A DNA stretch of 24,806 nt, taken from IMG/VR virus record IMGVR_UViG_2541047691_000012. The stretch is one strand, 5' to 3'. This document shows positions 4,634 to 23,744 of the stretch, piece by piece. The stretch's first letter is position 1; the number at the start of each line of letters is the position of its first letter. This stretch comes from a virus (taxonomy: Duplodnaviria > Heunggongvirae > Uroviricota > Caudoviricetes). The notes beneath the pieces were generated by a model that was not told the origin of the DNA, ran no database searches, and was given only the letters and a program-made list of their open reading frames with translations. Position numbers and translations under genes: made by a program.

Positions 4634-5084
4634 CCCACGTCACATCCTGGAATACATGCGACCAGTCGCCTTCGGAAGATGGCAGGCGGGGTTTTGGCTC
4701 CGGCAGGTGTTCTGCCTGCGGCGTGCCCTGACTGCTGCGCGTGATGCGAACGCGTTCCCGCAGGGGGAGCGTAAACAGGAGATCGGCGCTGTCATCGTCA
4801 TTGATAACGGCGGAGAATTTGATGTCCTGATTACGCTCCGGATTGAGCAACAACTGTGGCTGATTTTCTGATAACCACGCCAGTAGCGGCAGCGTGAGGT
4901 CGTCCAGCTCCCCGGCGTAATCCATGACAAACATCACCATCTGATAGCGGTAAACAAACGAGGGCGTTTCTCCGGTTGTTTCAATGTTGCCGCTCTCCAC
5001 GAAAATGGTGAATTTTTCCGGGTTGGCCTGACACCATCGGCATGAACGGGTCATGGCTTCACGCAGGGAATCAATTTTCAGCAT
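4617..5084 (-). CDS. R: Tail completion protein R (P2 gpR-like)
   Basis: 155 aa. N-terminus MLKIDSLREAMT...ANPEKFTIFVESGNIE...LPLLAWLSENQP resembles my recollection of P2 gpR (MLKPDSLRRALTDAV...LRIFVDNGSI...VPVLAWLRENQP). Confidence 0.75.
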   Translation of the reverse strand: MLKIDSLREAMTRSCRWCQANPEKFTIFVESGNIETTGETPSFVYRYQMVMFVMDYAGELDDLTLPLLAWLSENQPQLLLNPERNQDIKFSAVINDDDSADLLFTLPLRERVRITRSSQGTPQAEHLPEPKPRLPSSEGDWSHVFQDVTWGESDG

Positions 5085-5361: not shown

Positions 5362-5629
5362 CTTTTGCAATATCGTTGCGTAGCTGTTCACGTCTTACCT
5401 CTCCGTCCTGATTGCGTTGCTGATTTTCCACGCGGAGTTGCGCCAGCACCTGCTGCATATCCTGTACCCCGGCGCTGATGATATTCAGGGTGTCGGCGGT
5501 ACTTTTCAGGGTGCTGGCCTGCGCTTCGTTTCTGGCGTTCTCCCGGCCCAGCGACCACGACAGACGCATGGATGTTCCCCATCCGGCAATCAGAAGGAAA
5601 GCGACGCCAAGCGTGGGCCAGAGCTTCAT
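5222..5629 (-). CDS. Inner-membrane spanin (Rz/LysB-like)
   Basis: N-terminal TM helix (MKLWPTLGVAFLLIAGWG) then a charged, coiled-coil-like periplasmic region. The ATG at 5629 overlaps the endolysin stop (ATGA). The longer track ORF (to 5773) would overlap the endolysin out of frame. Confidence 0.6.
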   Translation of the reverse strand: MKLWPTLGVAFLLIAGWGTSMRLSWSLGRENARNEAQASTLKSTADTLNIISAGVQDMQQVLAQLRVENQQRNQDGEVRREQLRNDIAKDECAHALPDARFTDRLRRHAERATASAVSPAYTADADHTGNASPLP

Positions 5630-6018
5630 GCCGGATAGGCTCCGTGTGGTAACTGAAAATGCGGTCCGTCTTTCAGAGTCTTCCAGTCGCCGCCCCATTC
5701 CACCGGAATATTCAGTTCCCGGCTGGCCTGTCTGAATGCTGCTGCGATTTTTTCGTACAGCGGCCATTCCCATGACACCTGGCTGCCGATATAAGCCACA
5801 ACATCCACGGCATGCCCCGTAAGGTGGCGGCTGTTCATGGTCTGGCTCTTACCCGTGGCCACCAGTTGCTTCTGGCGGTAACGGCTGCGCAACCCTTCGG
5901 TGATACCAAAATCCACTTCCGAGATTTCCAGTGCCCGTCGGGTCACTTTCACCAGATCAGGATTTACGCCCTGCAAATTCTTTTCGCTCCGGCTGCTGAA
6001 TTTAAATGTGTTGCTCAT
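5626..6018 (-). CDS. Endolysin, peptidase M15-type (zinc D-Ala-D-Ala / L-Ala-D-Glu peptidase fold)
   Basis: 130 aa with SRHLTGHAVDV, an H-x6-D zinc-binding motif typical of M15 peptidases. Strong SD (AAGGAG) upstream of the ATG. Sits between holin and spanins. Confidence 0.75.
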   Translation of the reverse strand: MSNTFKFSSRSEKNLQGVNPDLVKVTRRALEISEVDFGITEGLRSRYRQKQLVATGKSQTMNSRHLTGHAVDVVAYIGSQVSWEWPLYEKIAAAFRQASRELNIPVEWGGDWKTLKDGPHFQLPHGAYPA

Positions 6019-7982: not shown

Positions 7983-9035
7983 TTAGCTGTCGGCGAACTT
8001 CAGGCCAGTGACCATCGCGCACTTGCCATAGTCTTCAACGACATAAGCGTCATTGATGGACTGGTAGGTGGCGATGCGGTTGTATTCCGGCTCGTCTTTC
8101 ATCAGGCGACGCATTGTTCCTTTCTGCCAGTAAATCGACAGGTTGTTGAACGAGGTGATCAGCATCGTTGAATCCGGGAAGAACGGCGCAAGGAATACAT
8201 CCAGTCCGCCAATGGCGCGCGATGACAGGATGAGCTGTCCGGCAAGTAATTCCGCATTGGGATTCTGGCCGCTGATGCTGTTCAGCACGGGCAGACGCAG
8301 CGAGTTAAACAGGTTGCGCCCCATAATCACCACGAGGTCGTCAGCTTCCTTGTGCCATTCATCCAGCAGGGATGAGCGCGCGTCCTGTACCAGTGCATCA
8401 GCGTTCGCATACTTACCCGCGTGCGCCACGGTGTTGTCCATGTTGCGGGAGGTCAGCGTCACGTCATTCATTACGCGCTCGCTGGCGTCGGTTCTGATGT
8501 GCTCCAGCCATCCCACGTTAACGTCCTGAAGCAGCTTGTTGGTGCTGAAGTTGGACTCATCTGCGTGAGACGTGCCGTTGAAACCGATCATGATGCGGTC
8601 AAGCGCCACCTGCCGGGCAATCTGTGTGCTGACGCGTGACTGAAAATCAGGGTGTGCCGCCCAGGCATCAAGCTGCGGATACGAAATAAACGTGTCGTAG
8701 TTCACCTGTTCGCACTGATATTTGCGGTTTTTCAGATCAACCACGTTATTCGGGTTACGGCGTTTTGTGCCGTCATAACTGGTATTCGTGCGCGCAATCG
8801 GCCCGGTGGTGTCCAGGAGGATTTTTTCGCCTTTCTGGTCTGTCACACCGAACACGTTAATTTTTTTTGTAAATTCAGTGCTCTCCTTTACTGCGTTTTC
8901 AAAACGCTGCTGCACCGAGGGTTCCACGGTAAATCGCGATACCAGTGCAGATACCGGGATGTTGTTAAGCGACGCCTGCTGCGCCATATAGCAACCCAGC
9001 TTGTTGCGGGTAATATCTGACATCACCAGATTCAT
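7983..9035 (-). CDS. N: Major capsid protein N (P2 gpN-like)
   Basis: 350 aa (P2 gpN is 357 aa). The motif KKFTVEPSV in P2 matches SRFTVEPSV here. Sits between scaffold O and M. SD AAGGAG upstream. Confidence 0.9.
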   Translation of the reverse strand: MNLVMSDITRNKLGCYMAQQASLNNIPVSALVSRFTVEPSVQQRFENAVKESTEFTKKINVFGVTDQKGEKILLDTTGPIARTNTSYDGTKRRNPNNVVDLKNRKYQCEQVNYDTFISYPQLDAWAAHPDFQSRVSTQIARQVALDRIMIGFNGTSHADESNFSTNKLLQDVNVGWLEHIRTDASERVMNDVTLTSRNMDNTVAHAGKYANADALVQDARSSLLDEWHKEADDLVVIMGRNLFNSLRLPVLNSISGQNPNAELLAGQLILSSRAIGGLDVFLAPFFPDSTMLITSFNNLSIYWQKGTMRRLMKDEPEYNRIATYQSINDAYVVEDYGKCAMVTGLKFADS

Positions 9036-13766: not shown

Positions 13767-14726
13767 TTACTCCTTGTCCATTGCGTACAGCCCATTAACC
13801 AGAGCAAACTGTGGCACCCCGTCCGCGATGAAAGTCGCATTAACTCCGCAGGCTTCGCGGATAGCGGGTGCCACAATCTCCGCCCCTCCACCGACAACCA
13901 TCACCCGCCCGTAACCCGAAAAACCCGCCAGCGCGCGGATCACGCGTTGTTTCAGTGTTTCTTCCTTTTCACGAATAACCGCCATCAGGCTGGCGTAATG
14001 CGCGTCATTGTGGATGTGCTGGCGCAGCCAGGCTTCATCATGGCGATGTTCGATAATGGTATTGGCGATGTGGTGACTGGTGCGCATACCGTTAGTGGCC
14101 ATCACCGACAGTACGGCATCGGCCATCAGAGAAACGCCTACGTGTGGATCGCAAAACACCTGGCTGATACCTGCCAGTTGCCCCTGAACCTTTGCCACAT
14201 CCAGCGTGGTTCCGCCCAAATCCACAATCAGCAGGGATTCAAACGGACTCATGTCAGCCAGTGCTTTAAAGCCAGCCGGAATGGATTCAGGCATAACCCG
14301 CACGTTACGGATAGTGAATGCTTCGCCGTTCTGGTACTCCACCGGGCGCATAACGTTCGCTTTTTTGCGGTTGATGTTGGCCATGTCCGGCTGTGCGTTT
14401 GTGTCGAAATACTCGCTCAGTGGCAGGGTAACAACCACATCCACCTCCTGTGGCGTGATGCCTGATTTGACCAGCGCGTGATGAATGGCAATGACATTCA
14501 CATCGCTGTACTGGTATTGCGTGTCGGTCGTCTGGACAAAGCGATCGCTGACCGGATCAAAACCATAGCGCACGCCATCAAGCATGTAGTTTGCGGGCTG
14601 CGTGCCACCGAACGGCGCAGACCATTCCGACTTGAAACTGTTCGGGCTGATGGCGTTGCGGCGTTCGCCGTTCTCAGTCCATGCCAGCTTGATGTTGGTG
14701 GAGCCGTCGTCGATACAAATTTTCAT
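13767..14726 (-). CDS. parM: ParM/StbA-family actin-like segregation ATPase
   Basis: 319 aa. MKICIDDGSTNIKLAW...ISPNSFKSEW...YQYSDVNVIAIHHAL...KANVMRPVEYQNGEAFTIRNVRVMPESIPAG...LLIVDLGGTTLDVAKV...MVVGGGAE closely parallels my recollection of R1 ParM (MLVFIDDGSTNIKLQW...ISPNSFKREW...WQYSDVNVVAVHHAL...VKVMPESIPAG...LLIIDLGGTTLDIS...VMVIGGGAE). SD AAGGA upstream. Confidence 0.9.
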   Translation of the reverse strand: MKICIDDGSTNIKLAWTENGERRNAISPNSFKSEWSAPFGGTQPANYMLDGVRYGFDPVSDRFVQTTDTQYQYSDVNVIAIHHALVKSGITPQEVDVVVTLPLSEYFDTNAQPDMANINRKKANVMRPVEYQNGEAFTIRNVRVMPESIPAGFKALADMSPFESLLIVDLGGTTLDVAKVQGQLAGISQVFCDPHVGVSLMADAVLSVMATNGMRTSHHIANTIIEHRHDEAWLRQHIHNDAHYASLMAVIREKEETLKQRVIRALAGFSGYGRVMVVGGGAEIVAPAIREACGVNATFIADGVPQFALVNGLYAMDKE

Positions 14727-14754: not shown

Positions 14755-14875
14755 CCGTTTACGGGATTTTTAAATCCCGCTTTCGCCTGTTTTGTGCGCA
14801 CTTCATGTTTTATGGCGCGTTTTTTGCTCATTTACGGGATTTGTGAATCCCGTTTCTGTCTGTTTTTTGTTTCCA
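14755..14875. repeat. Two ~42 bp direct repeats (73 bp period), each carrying a palindrome ACGGGATTT-n-AATCCCG; candidate parC centromere/operator
   Basis: Copy 1 at 14758-14800 (tttacgggatttttaaatcccgctttcgcctgttttgtgcgca); copy 2 at 14831-14875 (tttacgggatttgtgaatcccgtttctgtctgttttttgtttcc). Copy 1 is in the A-parM intergenic space; copy 2 overlaps the last codons of A. Confidence 0.55.
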
Positions 14876-17625
14876 CTGGTCAGGCCACCCCGCAGCAGGT
14901 CTGCTTTGCGGCGGGCGCGTTCAGTGGTTTCACTGATTCTCTGTGCGTGCTCTGCGTCACGGATGGCGCGCAGCATGTCAGAAAGCACGGTAACGGGTGT
15001 TTTCATGGTGTTCTGGTCTTGCTGAAGTGTGGATGCCAGGCGTGCGGCGGCTTCGGGGTCTGATGCCCCTAGCTGTTCCAGATAACTGGCGACCGGGTTA
15101 TGGCGGATCTCCGTGCTGCTTACGCCGTGATTACGGCTCAGGCGCTGCCAGAGCTGCGTGATTCGGTTGTCCGGGCGGGTATCCGGTTTGCGTACAATTT
15201 CAAATCCCTGCGGTGCAATGATGCTGCCGTCAACGTACAGACTGCCGCCCCGTAACAGGTGCTGCATCTGCTGTTCACCGATATGCAGGCCGAGAGATTC
15301 AGCAGACTCCCGCCATTCTTTAGCGAGTAACTCGTGGTTATCAGGCAAAGGCTGTGGCTGTTTGCGGCTCTGTGTCCAGTTCTGCATTTCAGCACTGCTG
15401 TTTTTTGCCTGTTTGTCACGCAGCGAACGCATCAGCGCCCGGCGTTCGTGCCGTTTCAGTGAGCGCATCCATTCATTCACTTCAACGCCGTCAGGGAGCT
15501 GCGGCCACAGTGCTGGCCGTTCTTCCGGCTGTTCTGTCCCGTTGTTGTTCGTTTCCTGTACACGGGGACAGTTATTGCCACGAGTCCAAGGGGCGGCAGG
15601 GCCGCCCTGAAGGTCAAAACCATTTTCGCGGGTGCTGTCCTCCGCTTCCGGTTTACGTCTTACCAGCTTCCAGTTATCCGGATGCGTGCACACACGGGAG
15701 GATTCCCCGATGAATGGCGACCAGATCCCGTAAATCTGTACACTCTGTTCGCCGTAATCGTTAAGCTCATCTGCGAGGTCGTAGGCTGTGCGAATCAGGT
15801 AGTCCTTGCGCGGAACAAGTACGCCACCCTGTTTTTCAATGTAGGTGGCAAAACACCCGGCATCAGCGGCAGCAAGAACCGCATCCATTGCGTCATCCTT
15901 CAGCCGTTGCGGGCCTTCCGGGTTGCGTGCCATCTGGCTGGCAAGGCGGCGGAGTTCACGCCACACCTGACGGGAGGGGATGCCAAAGAACTGGAACTGG
16001 CGGACCCGGTGAAGGCGCGCCCAGCCGATGGCGCGCTCCACGCTCTCGGCCATTGATTTATCTGTTTCGTGGTCAACGCGTGGCTTGCCCGTTTTCGGGT
16101 CGATGCCATCCACGGCGCGGCTGTCCAGGTTCTTTCCGATGTAGGTGGCGATGTAGCTGGTTGGCGTGCCTTTTGAGCCGTCGACGAACTCCGCCTTAAA
16201 GCGTGGGGTAATATCATCACCCAGCTCGTGACGATCTTCCTGAATGGCAATATCGCGGGTGTGGGACACAATGGTGTCGATTTCTTCCGGATGAGCAAAG
16301 ACCATCATATGCCAGTGCACGGTGCCGTCATGGTGAGGCTCCACCGTGCGGATGCCATACCAGCGCAGGCCGTCGCGGTTCAGTTTCTTGCGGACCGCTG
16401 CAAAAAACGTGTTAACCAGGTAATCGCTGGAGTCGCGCATGGTGGCCCCGTTCCATTTGGGATTCGGATGACCGTTCTCTGTTGTGGCGTGGTATTTTGA
16501 CGGGCAGGTGACAGTCAGAAACACCGCTTTGTCGCCACGGGCTTCGGCCAGAAGTTCCAGCCCCTTCATGGTGGCCATCATTTCTGCCTTACGGTGAACC
16601 GGGTTACTTACTCCCGCGTAATACACTGTCTCGAGATCAATCGTGAACCCGTCTTCGTTTTCCAGCATGAAACTTTTCAGGAAATCGCGTGTTTTCTCGC
16701 TCTGTGCGCGAAACTCGCTTAACGCGTCCTGGCTCAGATAGGGTGATGTTTTTCTGGAAACCAGACAGGCGGCGCGGAGTTGTTCTTCTCTCCACTCGCA
16801 ACGTAACAGCCACAGTTTGCGTTTCCACCATTCCGCACAGGTCAGGCGAAGGATTGCGCCCGGCAGCAGCTCCGTGTCCGGTTCGTTCCTCCGGTCTTTA
16901 TCTGTTGTCAGTGCGTCATAATGTGGAGGCATGATGTGCAGGTGTAACGCCATGCGGGCCAGCATCTGATACGCCTTCAGCGTTACATCCATGGTCAGTT
17001 CGCCATCGGTCGCGCCAAAGCCATCGCAGAGTTTTTCGAAGGTGCTGCTGAACATCGCCGCCGTCATGGTGGCCAGCGTCTGTATCTGGTGTTTGTTGAG
17101 CTGCGGCAGGTAAAGCAAATCGTCCAGGCGTTCGCGTCCGGCAAGGGAGCGATAACCCTGTGTCAGCCAGCGGTGATCGGTGCGCTCCAGACGTTCGAAT
17201 ATTTTGCGCAGGGTTCCGCGTGCATAGCGTTCCGCCTGCCAGCTCTTTTTGCCTTTCCGGCGATCGGCTTCCTGTTTTTTGCGCAGGAAGGAGAGGTGGC
17301 GAATAAGCGGATCGCGCAGATAGGACGGCAGCAGGCGCAGCGAGGCCATGGCTTCATCCACCGCGCCGCGTGCCTGTTTTCTGGCGTCTCCTGCCAGTGC
17401 GATGGTTTTGTCCTGTTTTTCCTGTGCGTCCAGGCTTTTATTAATCAGGTTGCCCAGCGGCGTGGCGGAGAACGCCGCATCAGCCATTTTCTGGCGGCGC
17501 TCGTTCTCTGCCCGGTAGGCATCCAGCCAGGAGGAAAGCACGGATTCAGGAGCGGGGATCCCCGTTCCTTCACGCCCTACTGCGTGGCGCGGTTGTTGCC
17601 AGTCCCTGATGTACTCTGTCGTCAT
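14803..17625 (-). CDS. A: Rolling-circle replication initiator endonuclease (P2 gpA-like)
   Basis: 940 aa. HHDGTVHWHMMVF matches the P2 A motif HHDGTPHWHMMLF, and YIATYIGKN matches the YxxxY catalytic tyrosine pair (P2 YVAKYISKN). Longer than P2 A (761 aa). Confidence 0.9.
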   Translation of the reverse strand: MTTEYIRDWQQPRHAVGREGTGIPAPESVLSSWLDAYRAENERRQKMADAAFSATPLGNLINKSLDAQEKQDKTIALAGDARKQARGAVDEAMASLRLLPSYLRDPLIRHLSFLRKKQEADRRKGKKSWQAERYARGTLRKIFERLERTDHRWLTQGYRSLAGRERLDDLLYLPQLNKHQIQTLATMTAAMFSSTFEKLCDGFGATDGELTMDVTLKAYQMLARMALHLHIMPPHYDALTTDKDRRNEPDTELLPGAILRLTCAEWWKRKLWLLRCEWREEQLRAACLVSRKTSPYLSQDALSEFRAQSEKTRDFLKSFMLENEDGFTIDLETVYYAGVSNPVHRKAEMMATMKGLELLAEARGDKAVFLTVTCPSKYHATTENGHPNPKWNGATMRDSSDYLVNTFFAAVRKKLNRDGLRWYGIRTVEPHHDGTVHWHMMVFAHPEEIDTIVSHTRDIAIQEDRHELGDDITPRFKAEFVDGSKGTPTSYIATYIGKNLDSRAVDGIDPKTGKPRVDHETDKSMAESVERAIGWARLHRVRQFQFFGIPSRQVWRELRRLASQMARNPEGPQRLKDDAMDAVLAAADAGCFATYIEKQGGVLVPRKDYLIRTAYDLADELNDYGEQSVQIYGIWSPFIGESSRVCTHPDNWKLVRRKPEAEDSTRENGFDLQGGPAAPWTRGNNCPRVQETNNNGTEQPEERPALWPQLPDGVEVNEWMRSLKRHERRALMRSLRDKQAKNSSAEMQNWTQSRKQPQPLPDNHELLAKEWRESAESLGLHIGEQQMQHLLRGGSLYVDGSIIAPQGFEIVRKPDTRPDNRITQLWQRLSRNHGVSSTEIRHNPVASYLEQLGASDPEAAARLASTLQQDQNTMKTPVTVLSDMLRAIRDAEHAQRISETTERARRKADLLRGGLTSGNKKQTETGFTNPVNEQKTRHKT

Positions 17626-17631
17626 ACTGAT

Positions 17632-17997
17632 TTACTTCGTCATACCGTTGAGGGTGTCACGGCAAACGGCAGCCAGCCGCTGAATTTCCAGCACGGTGTC
17701 TTCTGTGTCGGCATGGCGATGTGTGATGCGGATGCTGTCGGCAATCACATCGACGATTGCAGAGGATGGGCGCTGGTAAATGCCAATAACGGACGGGGTG
17801 CCACCTTCAATGCGGTAAAGCCTGTAATTTCCCTCGTGGCTGTCAATCATGTAGCGACCATCAATAACAATCTTTCCGTCAGCGAGCTGCGGTACAGGCA
17901 GGGATTTCAGGTACATGTCATAACGATCACGCACGCGAGCGGCAAGATCACGTTCTGTGTTGAGCAGATATTCAAGAAAGTCGTTGGCGAGAATCAT
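17632..17997 (-). CDS. Hypothetical early-region protein (121 aa) immediately upstream of A
   Basis: ORF with no overlap, 6 nt from the A start. Function not recognised. Confidence 0.5.
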   Translation of the reverse strand: MILANDFLEYLLNTERDLAARVRDRYDMYLKSLPVPQLADGKIVIDGRYMIDSHEGNYRLYRIEGGTPSVIGIYQRPSSAIVDVIADSIRITHRHADTEDTVLEIQRLAAVCRDTLNGMTK

Positions 17998-18069
17998 TGC
18001 GGCAATCCTCTTGTTACAGATGTGCGAAGGCCTCCCGCCGCAAGGTGCAGGAAAGGCCCGGAACAGGAA

Positions 18070-18300
18070 TTAATGGAGTTTGTTTTGCTGCTGGATGAGC
18101 TTTTGAAGCTCGCGCAGATCATCTGCCAGATAGCTGAAAACAGAGGCGGAATAGCTGTTCGATAGTGCGTGACTGCGTTCATGCAGCATATTGATGTGCA
18201 TGATATGCGCGACGCGGAATGCGCGGAAAAGTCTGCGGTTGATTTCAGTCTGGATGTGACGACGCTCCGCGATAGCGCGGTGCTGTTTGCGGTTTGCCAT
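18070..18300 (-). CDS. Hypothetical small basic protein (76 aa)
   Basis: ATG with a strong SD (AAGAGG, 9 nt spacing). Arg/His-rich N-terminus. Function not recognised. Confidence 0.5.
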   Translation of the reverse strand: MANRKQHRAIAERRHIQTEINRRLFRAFRVAHIMHINMLHERSHALSNSYSASVFSYLADDLRELQKLIQQQNKLH

Positions 18301-18476
18301 GGTGTGGCCTCTTTGGTTGTAAGTTTTGAAAACTCACCATCCAGAGCTGCGAAACTGTGGGTGGCGAGACGTACGGGGTTCGCAGTACCGGCAACCAAAG
18401 AACCCGGCCCGACCGAAGTCGGCCCCGTACGCCCCGCCATAATTCGTGTGCGAAAAAGACGTGGCAATACAGTACG

Positions 18477-18500
18477 CACAAAAAAACCGCTGGCGCGGTT
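18477..18500 (-). terminator. Intrinsic terminator inside the structured region (AACCGC-GCCA-GCGGUU followed by a U-run)
   Basis: Minus-strand reading: aaccgcgccagcggtttttttgtg; short GC stem followed by a U-run of at least 5. Confidence 0.45.
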
Positions 18501-18638
18501 GTGCGCTTTGGTTGTCAGCAGGCTGCGAAACCCGGCACCCGTTTTATGAGGTGCAGCGGAAATGTAACCTGACTGATTGCGGCATGGCAAGCGGTTTTTT
18601 TGTGAGAACGGCATACTAAAAAAAATCCTGATACTGCT

Positions 18639-18663
18639 CCGGCCAGCGATTTTCACTGGCCGG
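18639..18663 (-). terminator. Stem-loop 7 nt downstream of the SPFH gene stop (ccggccag...ctggccgg)
   Basis: 8 bp perfect stem with 9 nt loop; a U8 run follows 13 nt later on the minus strand, which is further than ideal. Confidence 0.35.
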
Positions 18664-18669
18664 GTTTAA

Positions 18670-19494
18670 TTACTTCACCGGAACAAACGGAACAGCGGTG
18701 TTGCTGGTCATGTATTGCGGCAGCGTGCCGTTCCATTTGTTGATTGCTTCCAGCTCCATAACGCCGGGATTCTGGCGCAGAGCTTCACCGCGTAAACGAA
18801 TGGCGTCGGCTTCAGCCTGGGCTTTTGTGCGAATGGCATCAGCCTGTCCGGCAGCTTCTGCGCGCAACATGTTGGCTTCTGCTTCGCGTTGCTTGACTTC
18901 CTGTTCGCGTTGCAGGGTTTTCTGGTTTGCCGTGACTTTGGCGTTAATGCTGTCGATAACGGTTGGCGGATATTCCGGTTTACCGACATAAGAGAGGCTC
19001 ATGACCTGAATGCCGATAGGTGTCATTTCTGACTGAATGTCTTTAAGTGCTGAATCCAGCAGTTCAGACTTGCCACCGTCGATAAACTTATCGGTGGTCA
19101 TTTTGCTGGCCAGTCGGTTGAGTGCATCGGCGATCTTCTGGCGCAGGTCAGTGTCGGTAATGTCATCCACGCCTTTGCGGTAGGTCTGAAACACAGTGGT
19201 AACTTTGGATGGATCAACTTTGTAGGCCACGCCGATGTGATAGCCGATGGTTGTGCCGTCACTCATCTGGAAGTTGAACGGCTCATCGTAAGTCTTCATT
19301 TGTTTGAAAGTCGGGAAGATGTAAACCTCTGTATTCCAGCCTGTCCAGTAGCGGCCAACGCCAACTACTTCACCGACGCCTTTATCGTCGCCCAGTTTGT
19401 TGACTTTGATGCCTACATTGCCCGGCTCCACGCGGTCACAGCCAACCAGAAGTGTGGTCATCAGGAGAGGGATGAGTGGTAATAGTTTTTTCAT
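18670..19494 (-). CDS. SPFH/band-7 (prohibitin/stomatin-like) lipoprotein
   Basis: 274 aa. Signal peptide plus lipobox (MKKLLPLIPLLMTTLLVGC). Core and C-terminal Ala/Glu/Arg/Gln-rich coiled-coil region (QREQEVKQREAEANMLRAEAAGQADAIRTKAQAEADAIRLRGEALRQNPGVMELEAINKW) typical of SPFH proteins. ATGA overlap with the upstream small membrane gene. Confidence 0.8.
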   Translation of the reverse strand: MKKLLPLIPLLMTTLLVGCDRVEPGNVGIKVNKLGDDKGVGEVVGVGRYWTGWNTEVYIFPTFKQMKTYDEPFNFQMSDGTTIGYHIGVAYKVDPSKVTTVFQTYRKGVDDITDTDLRQKIADALNRLASKMTTDKFIDGGKSELLDSALKDIQSEMTPIGIQVMSLSYVGKPEYPPTVIDSINAKVTANQKTLQREQEVKQREAEANMLRAEAAGQADAIRTKAQAEADAIRLRGEALRQNPGVMELEAINKWNGTLPQYMTSNTAVPFVPVK

Positions 19495-19703
19495 TGTTTG
19501 GTTTCCATAATTGCTTTGATGTAGTTACTGAAAAAGCGAACAACGCCCGCCGGGTACAGCAAGGCGACAAAAATGCCCAGCAATACCAGGAAGGAGCTGT
19601 CTGATGAAATCATTCTGGGAAGTAGCCCCACATACAGAATGAGAGAAACGAGGACGCATACCAGCGCCCACATGTATGCGCGAAACCAGGTCTTTTTGTT
19701 CAT
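19491..19703 (-). CDS. Small two-helix membrane protein (70 aa), translationally coupled to the SPFH lipoprotein gene
   Basis: Two hydrophobic segments (WALVCVLVSLILYVGLL and FLVLLGIFVALLYPAGVV). SD AAAGGA upstream. Its stop overlaps the SPFH start. Confidence 0.6.
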   Translation of the reverse strand: MNKKTWFRAYMWALVCVLVSLILYVGLLPRMISSDSSFLVLLGIFVALLYPAGVVRFFSNYIKAIMETKQ

Positions 19704-23402: not shown

Positions 23403-23744
23403 ATGGTGAACATGTCAAGAGATTACGCCAAAAAACTAAAGGCGATCAGAAATGCAGAAAAACTTACACAATCTCAGTTTTCGCAAGTAACGGGGGTTTC
23501 TGTAGGGACTATAGGGAATTATGAGTCTGGATATAAACCTGCGCGAATTGAGGTTGTAGAAAAAGTAATCCAAGTCGAGCGATTCGAAAAATACACTATG
23601 TGGATACTTCACGACAAAACATTTCCCGCTGCCGGGCAGGTTGCCCCGGCTCTCTCTCTTGATGGCTCTATTCAGTCGGAGGGCGATCAGGTTTCAATCG
23701 GTATTACCCAAAAATCACCCCGATCAGGCCGCAATGTTGGCTGA
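23403..23744 (+). CDS. C: Immunity repressor C (P2 C-like, HTH XRE-type)
   Basis: 113 aa. HTH region (LTQSQFSQVTGVSVGTIGNYESG). C-terminal EKYTMWILHDKTFPAAGQVAPALSL resembles P2 C (TKYTLWFMTNQIAPESGQIAPALAH). Directly upstream of int on the same strand. Confidence 0.75.
   Translation: MVNMSRDYAKKLKAIRNAEKLTQSQFSQVTGVSVGTIGNYESGYKPARIEVVEKVIQVERFEKYTMWILHDKTFPAAGQVAPALSLDGSIQSEGDQVSIGITQKSPRSGRNVG

Follow-up and report, generated by a model that had tools for sequence, protein, structure and literature searches.

RNA-based immunity cassettes have been described in P1/P7 (c4), in P4 (the CI RNA) and in Gifsy-1 (IsrK), and the antisense-RNA type of immunity is textbook material. The curated P1 record lists promoters, a1, b1, c4 (77 nt), a2 and b2, the last lying next to the start of the first ORF, and P1/P7 heteroimmunity is a known case of specificity differences that reside in the a and b sites. 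The P4 immunity region consists of the PLE promoter, the seqA leader, the CI RNA with seqB, seqC, kil/eta and epsilon, with alpha further on. What we say below about mechanism in P4 draws on the summary in PMC4825925. Both CI and C4 are RNase P substrates (PMC5499578). For Gifsy-1, IsrK (77 nt) and a processed species of about 80 nt have been detected, and the pairs of compensatory mutations G28A/C162U and G31A/C159U have been described (PMC4825925). Hfq binding by IsrK and trans-activation of the downstream gene are known only for Gifsy-1 (PMC4825925). In that system IsrK has been described as an activator that works via translation of orf45, which overlaps C4 (PMC4825925), an account whose emphasis is other than that of the classical antisense-repressor model.

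The window analysed here is a 24.8-kb stretch of viral DNA, a short region of which (18301-18669) had originally been predicted to hold one or more structured RNAs rather than spacer DNA. This reading stands, as two full-length Rfam families, isrK and C4, were found there above their gathering scores. The region is very probably an RNA-based immunity cassette of the P1 c4, P4 CI and Gifsy-1 IsrK type, encoded on the minus strand. It is located within the early operon of a P88-like (Xuanwuvirus, P2-family) E. coli prophage, and belongs to the already described system of P1/P7 c4, P4 CI RNA and Gifsy-1 IsrK; it is not a new element. Family membership, structure, covariation, complementarity to a ribosome-binding site (RBS), the conservation of promoter and terminator and the neighbouring genes were all demonstrated in this analysis.

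Comparison of the locus with described cassettes

An Rfam scan had been proposed as a check of the original prediction, and it returned complete matches to isrK and to C4 on the minus strand (Table 1). On this strand the small leader RNA (IsrK) comes first and the C4/CI antisense RNA second, and IsrK lay immediately 5' of C4 in every locus examined. The C4 score exceeds the scores that the same model gives in P4 (74.9 bits) and in P1 (68.8 bits). A third model, c4-a1b1 (RF03163), overlaps the isrK match at 18515-18567 but reaches only 20.5 bits, below its gathering score of 46.7, and the leader was filed under isrK rather than under this family. P4 scores 44.1 bits with c4-a1b1, and the P1 leader behaves in the opposite way to that of the window, with 51 bits for c4-a1b1 and 35 bits for its isrK alignment.

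Table 1. Positions in the window of the cassette, its target sites and the neighbouring features
Feature	Position	Strand	Evidence
C4/CI-type antisense RNA	18357..18444	-	RF01695, 87.1 bits (gathering score 45; model 1-87 of 87); fold; covariation
C4 closing stem, 17 bp	18362-18378 with 18423-18439	-	inverted repeat
C4 a' (CUGCGAA), single-stranded junction	18379-18385	-	
C4 b' (CUUUGGUUG), loop of hairpin 2	18392-18400	-	
IsrK-type leader sRNA (equivalent to the P4 seqA leader and the P1 a1/b1 leader)	18480..18554	-	RF01394, 65.9 bits (gathering score 50; model 1-77 of 77)
a1 (UUCGCAG), loop of IsrK hairpin 2	18523-18529	-	
b1 (CAACCAAAG), IsrK linker	18506-18514	-	
IsrK intrinsic terminator	stem 18485-18500, U-run (U7) 18478-18484	-	terminator scan
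P-isrK, sigma-70-type promoter (positional equivalent of P4 PLE): -35 TTGCCA (18585-18590), 18-nt spacer, -10 TACATT (18561-18566)	18561..18590	-	9/12 matches
a2 (UUCGCAG), complement of C4 a'	18347..18353	-	pairing; conserved position
b2 (CAACCAAAGA), complement of C4 loop b'	18310-18319 (entry 18308..18319)	-	
Candidate antiterminator CACAAAAAAACCGCU	18590..18604	-	complementarity; inference
CCGGCCAGUGA/UCGCUGGCCGG, a strong hairpin that follows the SPFH stop codon directly	18639..18661	-	fold, inverted repeat
76-aa gene, remote homologue of P4 epsilon (helper-derepression/antirepressor)	18070..18300	-	Pfam, BLASTP, hhalign
121-aa ORF, same transcription unit	17632-17997	-	no Pfam or NCBIfam family
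gpA, 940-aa rolling-circle replication initiator, same transcription unit	14803-17625	-	Pfam Phage_GPA, E = 2e-130

The layout promoter-IsrK-C4-a2/b2-ORF recurs in P4, in P1, in 15 other phages and in P2-like prophages, of which five further ones have it. In P4, both Rfam models match in the same order as in the window (isrK at 8615-8692, C4 at 8420-8507), the promoter has the same position and the geometry that relates a' and b' to a1/b1 and a2/b2 is identical. Moreover, in both elements the cassette heads an operon that includes an epsilon-type derepression protein and has a replication protein last. The two differ in that the spacer between IsrK and C4 is 107 nt in P4 and 35 nt in the window, in that kil/eta comes first after b2 and then epsilon in P4 whereas the epsilon-like gene follows b2 directly in the window, and in the replication protein itself, the window having a gpA-type nickase where P4 has the alpha primase-helicase. 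Furthermore, P4 is a satellite, whereas the element in the window, a P2-like phage, is complete and has a C/Cox switch of its own.

The order of elements in the P1 record is likewise that of the window. The first P1 ORF, however, is icd, whose product has no detectable similarity to the 76-aa protein, and it is followed by ant1/2; in addition, P1 has a C1 operator on the c4 promoter, and none is evident in the window. The Gifsy-1 locus isrK-orf45(STnc1160)-anrP shares the Rfam isrK family and the tandem order, with a processed RNA of about 80 nt downstream in Gifsy-1, and the experimentally supported pairing of IsrK nucleotides 28/31 with nucleotides 162/159 corresponds to that of a1 with a' in the window. 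Here the host elements differ, being lambdoid for Gifsy-1 and P2-like for the window, as do the downstream genes: in Gifsy-1 this is anrP, whose product, an antirepressor, switches on the antiterminator AntQ, and in the window it is the epsilon-like gene. Whereas orf45 stops at the start of anrP, the same frame in the window continues for 148 codons across the epsilon-like gene and terminates where it overlaps the 121-aa ORF at an ATGA.

In lambdoid and Stx-converting phages (mEp460, Stx2a_WGPS2, cdtI, F039 and others) the cassettes show about 70% nucleotide identity to that of the window from the start of IsrK to b2, with both RNAs above gathering scores. They too lie in the early operon, between cII/roi-type and replication genes, but the gene under control is a Rha/Ant-type antirepressor, often annotated as an Ash-frame fusion, and the IsrK-C4 spacer measures 21-24 nt. 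Since the int-to-A region of P2 itself contains neither C4 nor isrK, the cassette is not a general P2 feature. In a literature search on P88 and Xuanwuvirus, no listed title or abstract deals with this RNA module.

Structure and covariation of C4

The C4 RNA consists of a 17-bp closing stem around hairpin 1, which has a UUCG loop, and hairpin 2. The 9-bp closing helix CGTACGGGG/CCCCGTACG that had been recognised around CCGAC-UUCG-GUCGG proved to be the inner part of C4's 17-nt inverted repeat. The UUCG hairpin noted at the same time is hairpin 1 of C4, with the qualification that UUCG is present only on the minus strand, the plus strand reading CGAA. A folding and covariation analysis, the other check named with the prediction, gave a low-energy fold of the minus strand (-49.8 kcal/mol, z = -3.9, versus -37.8 kcal/mol for the plus strand), and the single-sequence minimum free energy (MFE) structure is the same as that which covariation supports. 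For the whole 265-nt leader the fold has z = -4.4. Across 16 homologues the C4 structure is carried by compensatory changes: in the stems, 432 of 432 cells pair, against 32-46% in slid controls, and 13 of the 27 pairs have changed on both sides.

These data also bear on whether the inverted repeats might act in DNA, as a replication origin, a recombination site or a protein-binding palindrome, as their density beside replication genes could suggest. We find this barely credible. The minus-strand fold is 12 kcal/mol better than that of the plus strand owing to the many G-U pairs on which pairing relies; these form in the minus-strand RNA only, and the opposite strand has C-A mismatches in their place. 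In addition, the UUCG tetraloop is a motif specific to RNA, and according to the P2 record the P2-type origin is located within gene A. Neither a tRNA nor an att-like feature was found, and a tRNA/tmRNA scan gave no match.

C4 ends 3' in GCCACC, which it shares with the mature c4 annotated in P1 and which is typical of RNase P substrates. With its ends set by homology with the annotated P1 c4, mature C4 is predicted to span about 18360-18438 (79 nt). By analogy, and in a manner compatible with the sequence, C4 is probably cut by RNase P from the leader of the transcript that it targets.

Target sites and specificity

All of the sequence features listed in the original prediction were recovered at, or very near, the coordinates it gave, and the long-range complementarity it pointed to turned out to represent the antisense and target sites of the C4 system, which co-vary between phages. 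The 9-mer CAACCAAAG (18392-18400 on the plus strand) and its two exactly complementary copies, CTTTGGTTG at 18311-18319 and 18506-18514, are the C4 loop b' and its targets b2, at the RBS of the 76-aa gene, and b1, in IsrK. The repeated 10-mer GCTGCGAAAC, two copies of which lie at 18346-18355 and 18522-18531, contains a1 and a2, the targets of the C4 junction a'.

The positions of a1 and b1 agree with those in 17 loci and with the curated P1 record. Similarly, a2 lies +4 to +8 after the C4 match, at comparable positions in the 17 loci, and P1 annotates a2 equivalently. The 76-aa ORF of the window has its start codon at 18298-18300 and its Shine-Dalgarno sequence, AAGAGG, at 18308-18313, and b2 overlaps the latter; the b'/b2 duplex has an energy of -14.2 kcal/mol. 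Across the 17 loci the complement of b' is found 35-38 nt after C4, abutting a GAGG/GGAG box 5' of the next ATG, with the exceptions of JNE122398 and Kpn74, where b2 is weaker (6 nt), and of cdtI, where it is displaced to +57; a few b sites among these loci are short or interrupted (exact runs of 4-6 nt). All three copies of the 9-mer in the 24.8-kb window fall in this region (expectation 0.24; 0/100 shuffles reach three), and no extra C4 targets were found elsewhere in the window. The energies of the short-oligo duplexes are only modestly better than those of shuffles (24-48 of 1000 shuffles reach them); this test discriminates only weakly, and the argument is carried by the comparative evidence.

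This comparison revealed 16 distinct specificities in 17 loci. Pairing scores for the a and b sites averaged 30.4 within a locus (self) and 18.8 between loci (non-self), with a single non-self pair out of 270 reaching its own self score. Among ten P88-like modules, 63% of a/b-site columns were variable, versus 19% elsewhere (Fisher p = 9e-10), and immunity types reassort within one lineage. The joint change of a' and b' with their four targets argues for different immunity specificities, as in P1/P7, where the specificity differences between relatives likewise lie in the a/b sites. The a and b sites offer a simple sequence read-out of immunity type.

Leader RNA, promoter and upstream elements

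IsrK is composed of two 5' hairpins, which show covariation, a linker and an intrinsic terminator. A terminator had been predicted in this region and is real, but it lies on the minus strand, where a stem (18500-18485) is followed by a T-run, and it is IsrK's own. The predicted transcription start of P-isrK is near 18554; a -35/-10 pair is found in 17 of 17 loci, and in each the -10 element ends exactly 6 nt before position 1 of the isrK model. A second promoter-like site (TTGCCA 18467 to AATTAT 18439) was set aside as probably fortuitous: its start would fall inside the C4 stem, and no equivalent was seen in the shorter spacers of lambdoid loci.

Upstream of the promoter, CACAAAAAAACCGCU is complementary, over 15 nt without a mismatch, to the 3' arm and U-tract of the IsrK terminator. 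Because of its place before the IsrK transcription start, it can be present only in transcripts that come in from the early operon. A transcript of this kind folds to -50.3 kcal/mol with the CACAAAAAAACCGCU helix, versus -39.7 kcal/mol with the terminator hairpin enforced. All P88-like modules have the segment, whereas P4 lacks a counterpart and the lambdoid loci lack an upstream complement to the terminator (longest match <=9 nt). CACAAAAAAACCGCU may act as a lineage-specific antiterminator; alternatively, its A-tract could be a promoter UP element.

Further upstream, the hairpin CCGGCCAGUGA/UCGCUGGCCGG is strong (-21.8 kcal/mol, z = -5.8). It was not called by the terminator scan, and as it has no adjacent U-run (a U8 run follows 15 nt further on) it may serve to stabilise a 3' end or as a weak terminator. 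Phages without an SPFH gene show homology only from 18604 onwards, and the hairpin is part of the SPFH accessory-gene insert, outside the RNA cassette. Such a hairpin directly after the SPFH stop codon, with a promoter-like site and an intrinsic terminator nearby, is what would be expected if the region were only intergenic punctuation, ending the SPFH insert and starting the next genes, with the other repeats being functionless. This, however, leaves unexplained the two full-length covariance-model matches, the covariation and the three-way co-variation that the a and b sites show in 17 loci, and the cassette is kept as a unit in phages without the SPFH gene; we hold mere punctuation to be highly improbable.

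A reading frame that overlaps the RNAs

The original prediction had seen no credible ORF here, which is not strictly so: a mechanical ORF of 220 aa (17994-18656, minus strand) spans the region and scores 32 bits with Pfam Phage_ASH (PF10554; cut-off 26), the match covering residues 31-122, that is, 18291-18566. This overlapping ORF, the minus-strand location and the membership in a described system had been overlooked. RefSeq/PGAP and several phage records treat such a region as encoding an "Ash family protein", in which case the RNA structures would be incidental. PHROGs has similar "transcriptional repressor" families, PGAP annotates an ash family pseudogene, and in 16 of the 17 loci no stop codon interrupts the frame within C4. 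Furthermore, Gifsy-1 translates a 45-codon ORF in the same frame, which begins with the AUG at the C4 5' end, and coupling to the next gene requires this ORF (PMC4825925).

Against this, the Phage_ASH profile just covers isrK, C4 and a2/b2; in P4 it matches the old "cI protein" ORF, and in mEp460 it precedes the Rha domain. In addition, the variation obeys RNA rules, with compensatory changes in stems and loops that co-vary with their targets. When codons were compared within the 76-aa gene (18300-18070), downstream of isrK-C4, where the profile matches, 2 of 35 changed codons were synonymous in the Ash frame versus 13 of 36 in the 76-aa frame. The Ash frame is also broken upstream in F039, Kpn74 and JNE122398, and there is no Shine-Dalgarno sequence 5' of its AUG. 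On the grounds of the codon-substitution and frame tests, and of a Pfam profile that maps exactly onto the RNAs, the protein reading, which we consider very unlikely, was dropped; the pattern of sequence change argues that the 220-aa ORF is a translation of the RNA module rather than a conserved protein. As a separate possible sign of coding, IsrK-C4 spacing in multiples of 3 was examined and rejected: four of about six independent length changes fit, which by our own binomial estimate is not significant (p ~0.1).

With a coverage of >=80%, 1162 of 5426 complete E. coli genomes contain the cassette. The RefSeq rows listed leave it unannotated or call it an "ash family protein" pseudogene, which is a mislabel. 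Phage_ASH in Pfam, like several of the "repressor" families in PHROGs, appears to be cassette RNA in translation. An Rfam scan would annotate the cassette.

Genes downstream of the cassette

The 76-aa protein gives 25.4 bits with Pfam PF25738 (E = 1.2e-5), just under the cut-off of 27, which P4 epsilon itself passes with 170 bits; the family is named "derepression protein" in the sources. A BLASTP comparison with P4 epsilon shows 27% identity (E = 1e-6), and hhalign a probability of 93% over 64 columns. The prophage repressor, of 113 aa (23403-23744), is a homologue of P2 C (35% identity, E = 1e-22), and by analogy with epsilon the 76-aa protein could have P2 C-type repressors as its targets.

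No Pfam or NCBIfam family was found for the 121-aa ORF that follows, nor any significant similarity to P4 ORF151 and ORF106. The order C4, epsilon-like gene, small ORF, GPA is kept in loci L018-L022. By comparison with the described systems, the 121-aa ORF and gpA are probably controlled indirectly, through polarity. That C4 acts on the 76-aa gene in superinfection immunity or repression is a prediction from gene context, namely the epsilon-like gene and gpA downstream.

A model for the cassette

From P1, P4 and Gifsy-1 we infer RNase P processing, a translational block, polarity, immunity and titration, and the C4/CI antisense RNA most likely keeps the next gene and the phage replication genes off. 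In the model that we propose, the promoter would be constitutive, and most transcripts would end at the intrinsic terminator to yield an IsrK RNA of about 75 nt that carries a1 and b1 as decoy sites. Read-through transcripts would carry C4, whose 5' end is probably cut by RNase P, with trimming giving an RNA of about 79 nt. The single-stranded a' and b' of this RNA would then pair with a2 and b2, either of the same transcript or of incoming ones; with b2 lying over the RBS of the 76-aa epsilon-like antirepressor gene, translation would be blocked, and polarity would reduce transcription into the 121-aa ORF and replication gene A. Conversely, IsrK or surplus leader transcripts may titrate C4 via a1/b1 and so turn expression on. 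The sequences of a' and b' would set the immunity specificity, which would differ between prophages that are otherwise about 94% identical.

The MFE structure of the 265-nt read-through RNA shows the cis pairing of "structure A", as in Gifsy-1. By analogy with that system, the balance between IsrK-activator and antisense-repressor modes could differ here from the classical model.

Discussion

With an epsilon-like antirepressor and gene A behind it in P2-like prophages, the cassette is a likely determinant of induction, replication control and cross-immunity in this very common group and its P4-like satellites.

A wider reading, which we put forward tentatively and regard as possible but doubtful, is that in P88-like members of the P2 family the cassette forms a second, RNA-based immunity switch layered on the C/Cox switch. 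It would gate both the epsilon-type antirepressor and the replication initiator gpA, and the antirepressor could target P2 C-type repressors, whether the prophage's own or those of rival prophages. The segment at 18590-18604 may, in this scheme, allow RNA begun at the early promoter to pass the IsrK terminator, at which transcripts from the cassette's own promoter would stop. If this were true, the immunity-plus-derepression module of P4 would be shared with, or borrowed from, its helper phage family, and the hypervariable a and b sites would be the currency of competition between prophages.

Two known RNA families account for the structured intergenic region

An Rfam scan of the whole window returned exactly two matches above gathering scores, both full-length, both on the minus strand and both inside the gap under study: the small leader RNA IsrK and the antisense RNA C4 (see the table). 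The original prediction of structured RNA in this region thereby gains support and becomes specific, and the features that it listed are all present in the sequence and map one to one onto the two RNAs. Its 9-bp closing helix turns out to be the inner half of a 17-bp helix, its terminator lies on the minus strand, and its statement that there is no credible ORF has to be qualified, as a 220-aa minus-strand ORF (the Ash frame) spans the whole region.

The UUCG hairpin is hairpin 1 of C4. Counting its complement, the 9-mer CAACCAAAG has three copies in the 24.8-kb window, each of them within the region, against 0.24 expected by chance. The plus-strand copy is the loop of C4 hairpin 2, the unpaired segment b' (in RNA, CUUUGGUUG). 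Of the two sites complementary to it, b1 lies in the linker of IsrK and b2 overlaps the Shine-Dalgarno sequence of the 76-aa ORF. The 10-mer GCTGCGAAAC was found twice, the copies containing a1 (IsrK hairpin 2 loop) and a2 (just 3' of C4), both complementary to a' (CUGCGAA), a single-stranded junction of C4. The element belongs to a well-described kind and is not a new system; of 5426 complete E. coli genomes, 1162 carry the IsrK-C4 cassette at ≥80% coverage.

Features of the early region
Feature	Position	Strand	Remarks
ParM/StbA-type ATPase gene	13767-14726	-	directly downstream of gpA
gpA-type replication nickase	14803-17625	-	940 aa
121-aa ORF	17632-17997	-	
Ash frame	17994-18656	-	220 aa
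orf45/Ash frame from invariant AUG	17994-18440	-	148 codons
76-aa ORF	18070-18300	-	epsilon-like
Gap under study			369 bp, between SPFH-domain gene and 76-aa ORF
C4 antisense RNA (RF01695)	18357-18444	-	87.1 bits; gathering score 45
Second sigma-70-like site	18439-18467	-	
Terminator	18477-18500	-	
isrK (RF01394)	18480-18554	-	65.9 bits; gathering score 50
Candidate antiterminator	18590-18604		15 nt
SPFH insert with 3' hairpin	18605-19494	-	
SPFH-domain gene	18670-19494	-	SPFH/Band-7 lipoprotein
P2-C-type repressor	23403-23744	+	

Covariation and strand-dependent folding point to minus-strand RNAs

We fetched 15 phage loci, 4 of them P88-like and 11 from other temperate phages (hosts E. coli, Salmonella, Klebsiella and Hafnia; most of the phages lambdoid or Stx-converting), together with the loci of five further P2-like prophages and of P4 and P1. 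IsrK is followed by C4 in every locus, with a spacer of 21-35 nt (107 nt in P4). In an alignment of 16 C4 sequences, all 432 of 432 base-pair cells hold standard pairs and both sides have changed in 13 of 27 pairs, whereas sliding the partner by 1-3 columns reduced pairing to 32-46%. Covariation was also positive, though weaker than in C4, for both IsrK hairpins. Strand-dependent G-U pairing and the fold energies speak against a palindrome acting at the level of DNA and point to minus-strand RNA: because many C4 pairs are G-U, C4 folds better as minus-strand RNA (-49.8 kcal/mol) than as plus-strand RNA (-37.8 kcal/mol).

A sigma-70-like promoter was present in 17/17 loci, its -10 hexamer ending exactly 6 nt before IsrK position 1, which is the position of PLE in P4. 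We also noted a second sigma-70-like site in the IsrK-C4 spacer (TTGCCA, 17-nt spacer, AATTAT), for which no counterpart was seen in lambdoid loci. Its -10 overlaps the conserved AAUUAUGG at the C4 5' end, and transcription from it would therefore begin within the C4 stem.

Antisense sites co-vary as putative immunity types

Across 17 loci, a' has one complement at about IsrK position 26 and another 3-8 nt beyond the C4 end. Those of b' lie at about IsrK position 41 and 35-38 nt beyond C4, where they directly adjoin the GAGG of the following gene; the exceptions are a few b sites with an exact run of just 4-6 nt and cdtI, where the best b2 match is at +57. These loci carry 16 different a'/b' combinations, with a mean complementarity of 30.4 nt for cognate and 18.8 nt for non-cognate pairs, and only 1 of 270 non-cognate pairs reaches its own cognate value. 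In ten P88-like modules, whose identity is otherwise ~94%, variable columns make up 63% of the six a/b sites and 19% of the rest (p = 9e-10), and a-types and b-types reassort. The window and P88, for example, differ in both b' (CUUUGGUUG versus CUGUAGUUG) and a' (CUGCGAA versus GUGGAAA), and all four target sites carry matching changes. As judged from sequence, this co-variation appears to be a signature of heteroimmune variants, which are known in this form for P1 and P7. The curated GenBank record of P1 shows the same order of promoters, a1, b1, c4 (77 nt), a2, b2 and first ORF.

One P2-like prophage (L018; E. coli GCA_900448625.1) possesses two tandem IsrK-C4 cassettes (4747-4944 and 5576-5773) that differ in a'/b' specificity, one before the epsilon-like gene and the second between this gene and a 138-aa ORF upstream of gpA.

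The cassette precedes an epsilon-like gene in a P2-like prophage

The window belongs to a P2-like E. coli prophage. Its early-region stretch 17600-19500 shares 98% identity with E. coli chromosomes, and a 471-bp interval around the cassette shares 93% with Escherichia phage P88 (Xuanwuvirus, Peduoviridae). The repressor of the prophage is homologous to P2 C (35% identity). The repressor gene and cox are followed by accessory genes and then by the SPFH-domain gene, which shares the minus strand with the 76-aa ORF, the 121-aa ORF and gpA. Together with the hairpin at its 3' side, the SPFH gene makes up an insert (moron) missing from 569R5, P884B11, PhiR44_2 and Shae_phiSM, with which homology restarts exactly at 18604, the cassette start. 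The ParM/StbA-type actin-like segregation ATPase gene, whose P88 homologue is annotated "recombinase", is not the usual cargo of a phage integrated into the chromosome.

P4 epsilon is an antirepressor that inactivates the P2 C repressor. The 76-aa protein appears, from profile and pairwise comparisons, to be a remote homologue of it (BLASTP E = 1e-6; hhalign probability 93%), scoring 25.4 bits, below the cut-off of 27, against Pfam PF25738, of which P4 epsilon is the archetype. The order of immunity RNA, epsilon-type gene, small ORF(s) and replication protein parallels that of the P4 left operon and is kept in other P2-like prophages whose accessory genes differ; P2 itself is without the IsrK/C4 cassette. 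Epsilon-like proteins (72-76 aa; P0001-P0120) form a fast-diverging family, the homologues listed being 71-100% identical (Shae_phiSM 70%), with an invariant N-terminus MANRKQ and motif VFSYL and a variable centre and C-terminus, a pattern consistent with co-evolution alongside a partner, for instance the repressor.

The overlapping Ash frame is most likely the RNA module read as protein

In PGAP/RefSeq the region is labelled a pseudogene of an "ash family protein". The Phage_ASH profile (PF10554) matches residues corresponding exactly to isrK, C4 and a2/b2. The same correspondence is seen in the old "cI protein" ORF of P4 (8168-8584) and in mEp460 gp41, in which a Rha domain follows the match. 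PHROGs 6928, 995 and 821 ("transcriptional repressor/regulator") match the translated isrK-C4-a2/b2 module, and several phage records fuse the Ash frame to a downstream Rha/Ant antirepressor.

The frame is open through C4 in 16/17 loci and interrupted upstream in three. Codon-change counts revealed no protein-level selection in it where it overlaps the 76-aa gene (2 synonymous and 33 non-synonymous changes, versus 13 and 23 in the 76-aa frame). These codon changes, the frame breaks and the coincidence of profile and RNAs argue against a conserved Ash protein, and we conclude that Phage_ASH in essence represents the RNA module in translated form. For Gifsy-1, too, conservation was reported to be of nucleotides, not of amino acids (PMC4825925).

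Ribosome transit through the frame possibly has a role. In Gifsy-1 the first 45 codons (orf45) are translated, coupling translation to the next gene (PMC4825925), and the orf45 start corresponds to an invariant AUG at C4 positions 5-7. From this AUG the window's frame is open across the out-of-frame 76-aa gene, as it is in 4/4 P88-like loci, and its end overlaps the 121-aa ORF start in an ATGA, which echoes the orf45-anrP AUGA coupling of Gifsy-1.

A proposed mechanism and a candidate antiterminator

By homology with P1, P4 and Gifsy-1, we propose that the cassette promoter would fire constitutively, that the IsrK terminator would end most transcripts, and that RNase P would cleave read-through transcripts to yield C4. 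Both CI and C4 are established as RNase P substrates of the hairpin type (PMC5499578), and mature P1 c4 and the window's C4 both end in GCCACC. Pairing of a' and b' with a2 and b2 would then occlude the ribosome-binding site of the 76-aa gene, with polarity limiting expression of the 121-aa ORF and gene A, while the decoy copies a1 and b1 would let IsrK counteract C4. In Gifsy-1, northern blots detected the homologous IsrK (77 nt) and a ~80-nt processed species, STnc1160; supplying IsrK in trans turns on translation of the antirepressor encoded downstream, and compensatory mutations (G28A/C162U, G31A/C159U) validate the pairing corresponding here to a1-a' (PMC4825925). For the 265-nt read-through RNA of the window, the minimum free energy fold (-110.8 kcal/mol, z = -4.4) contains the same cis pairing as in Gifsy-1, between the middle part of IsrK and the a'/b' region of C4.

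Directly upstream of the cassette -35 lies CACAAAAAAACCGCU, a perfect complement of the IsrK terminator 3' arm and U-tract. Because it is upstream of the IsrK start, only transcripts from the early operon contain it; their predicted fold reaches -50.3 kcal/mol with the long-range helix versus -39.7 with the terminator enforced, whereas the IsrK-promoter transcript keeps its terminator. All P88-like modules have the segment, which is absent in lambdoid loci and P4. Among the modules that have it, the helix is weaker in that of one P2-like prophage (L019; ddG 1.9 kcal/mol), where the segment sequence is common to the L018-L022 subgroup, and we found no covariation support for the helix. The A-tract of the segment may simply be an UP element; we hypothesize that the segment is a candidate antiterminator, in which case lytic transcription could pass the IsrK terminator to gene A.

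The Ash annotation error spreads through protein-family databases. The interest of the cassette lies in its P2-family context, with an epsilon-like antirepressor and gpA under putative C4 control, in the clean covariation of immunity types, and in the candidate antiterminator.
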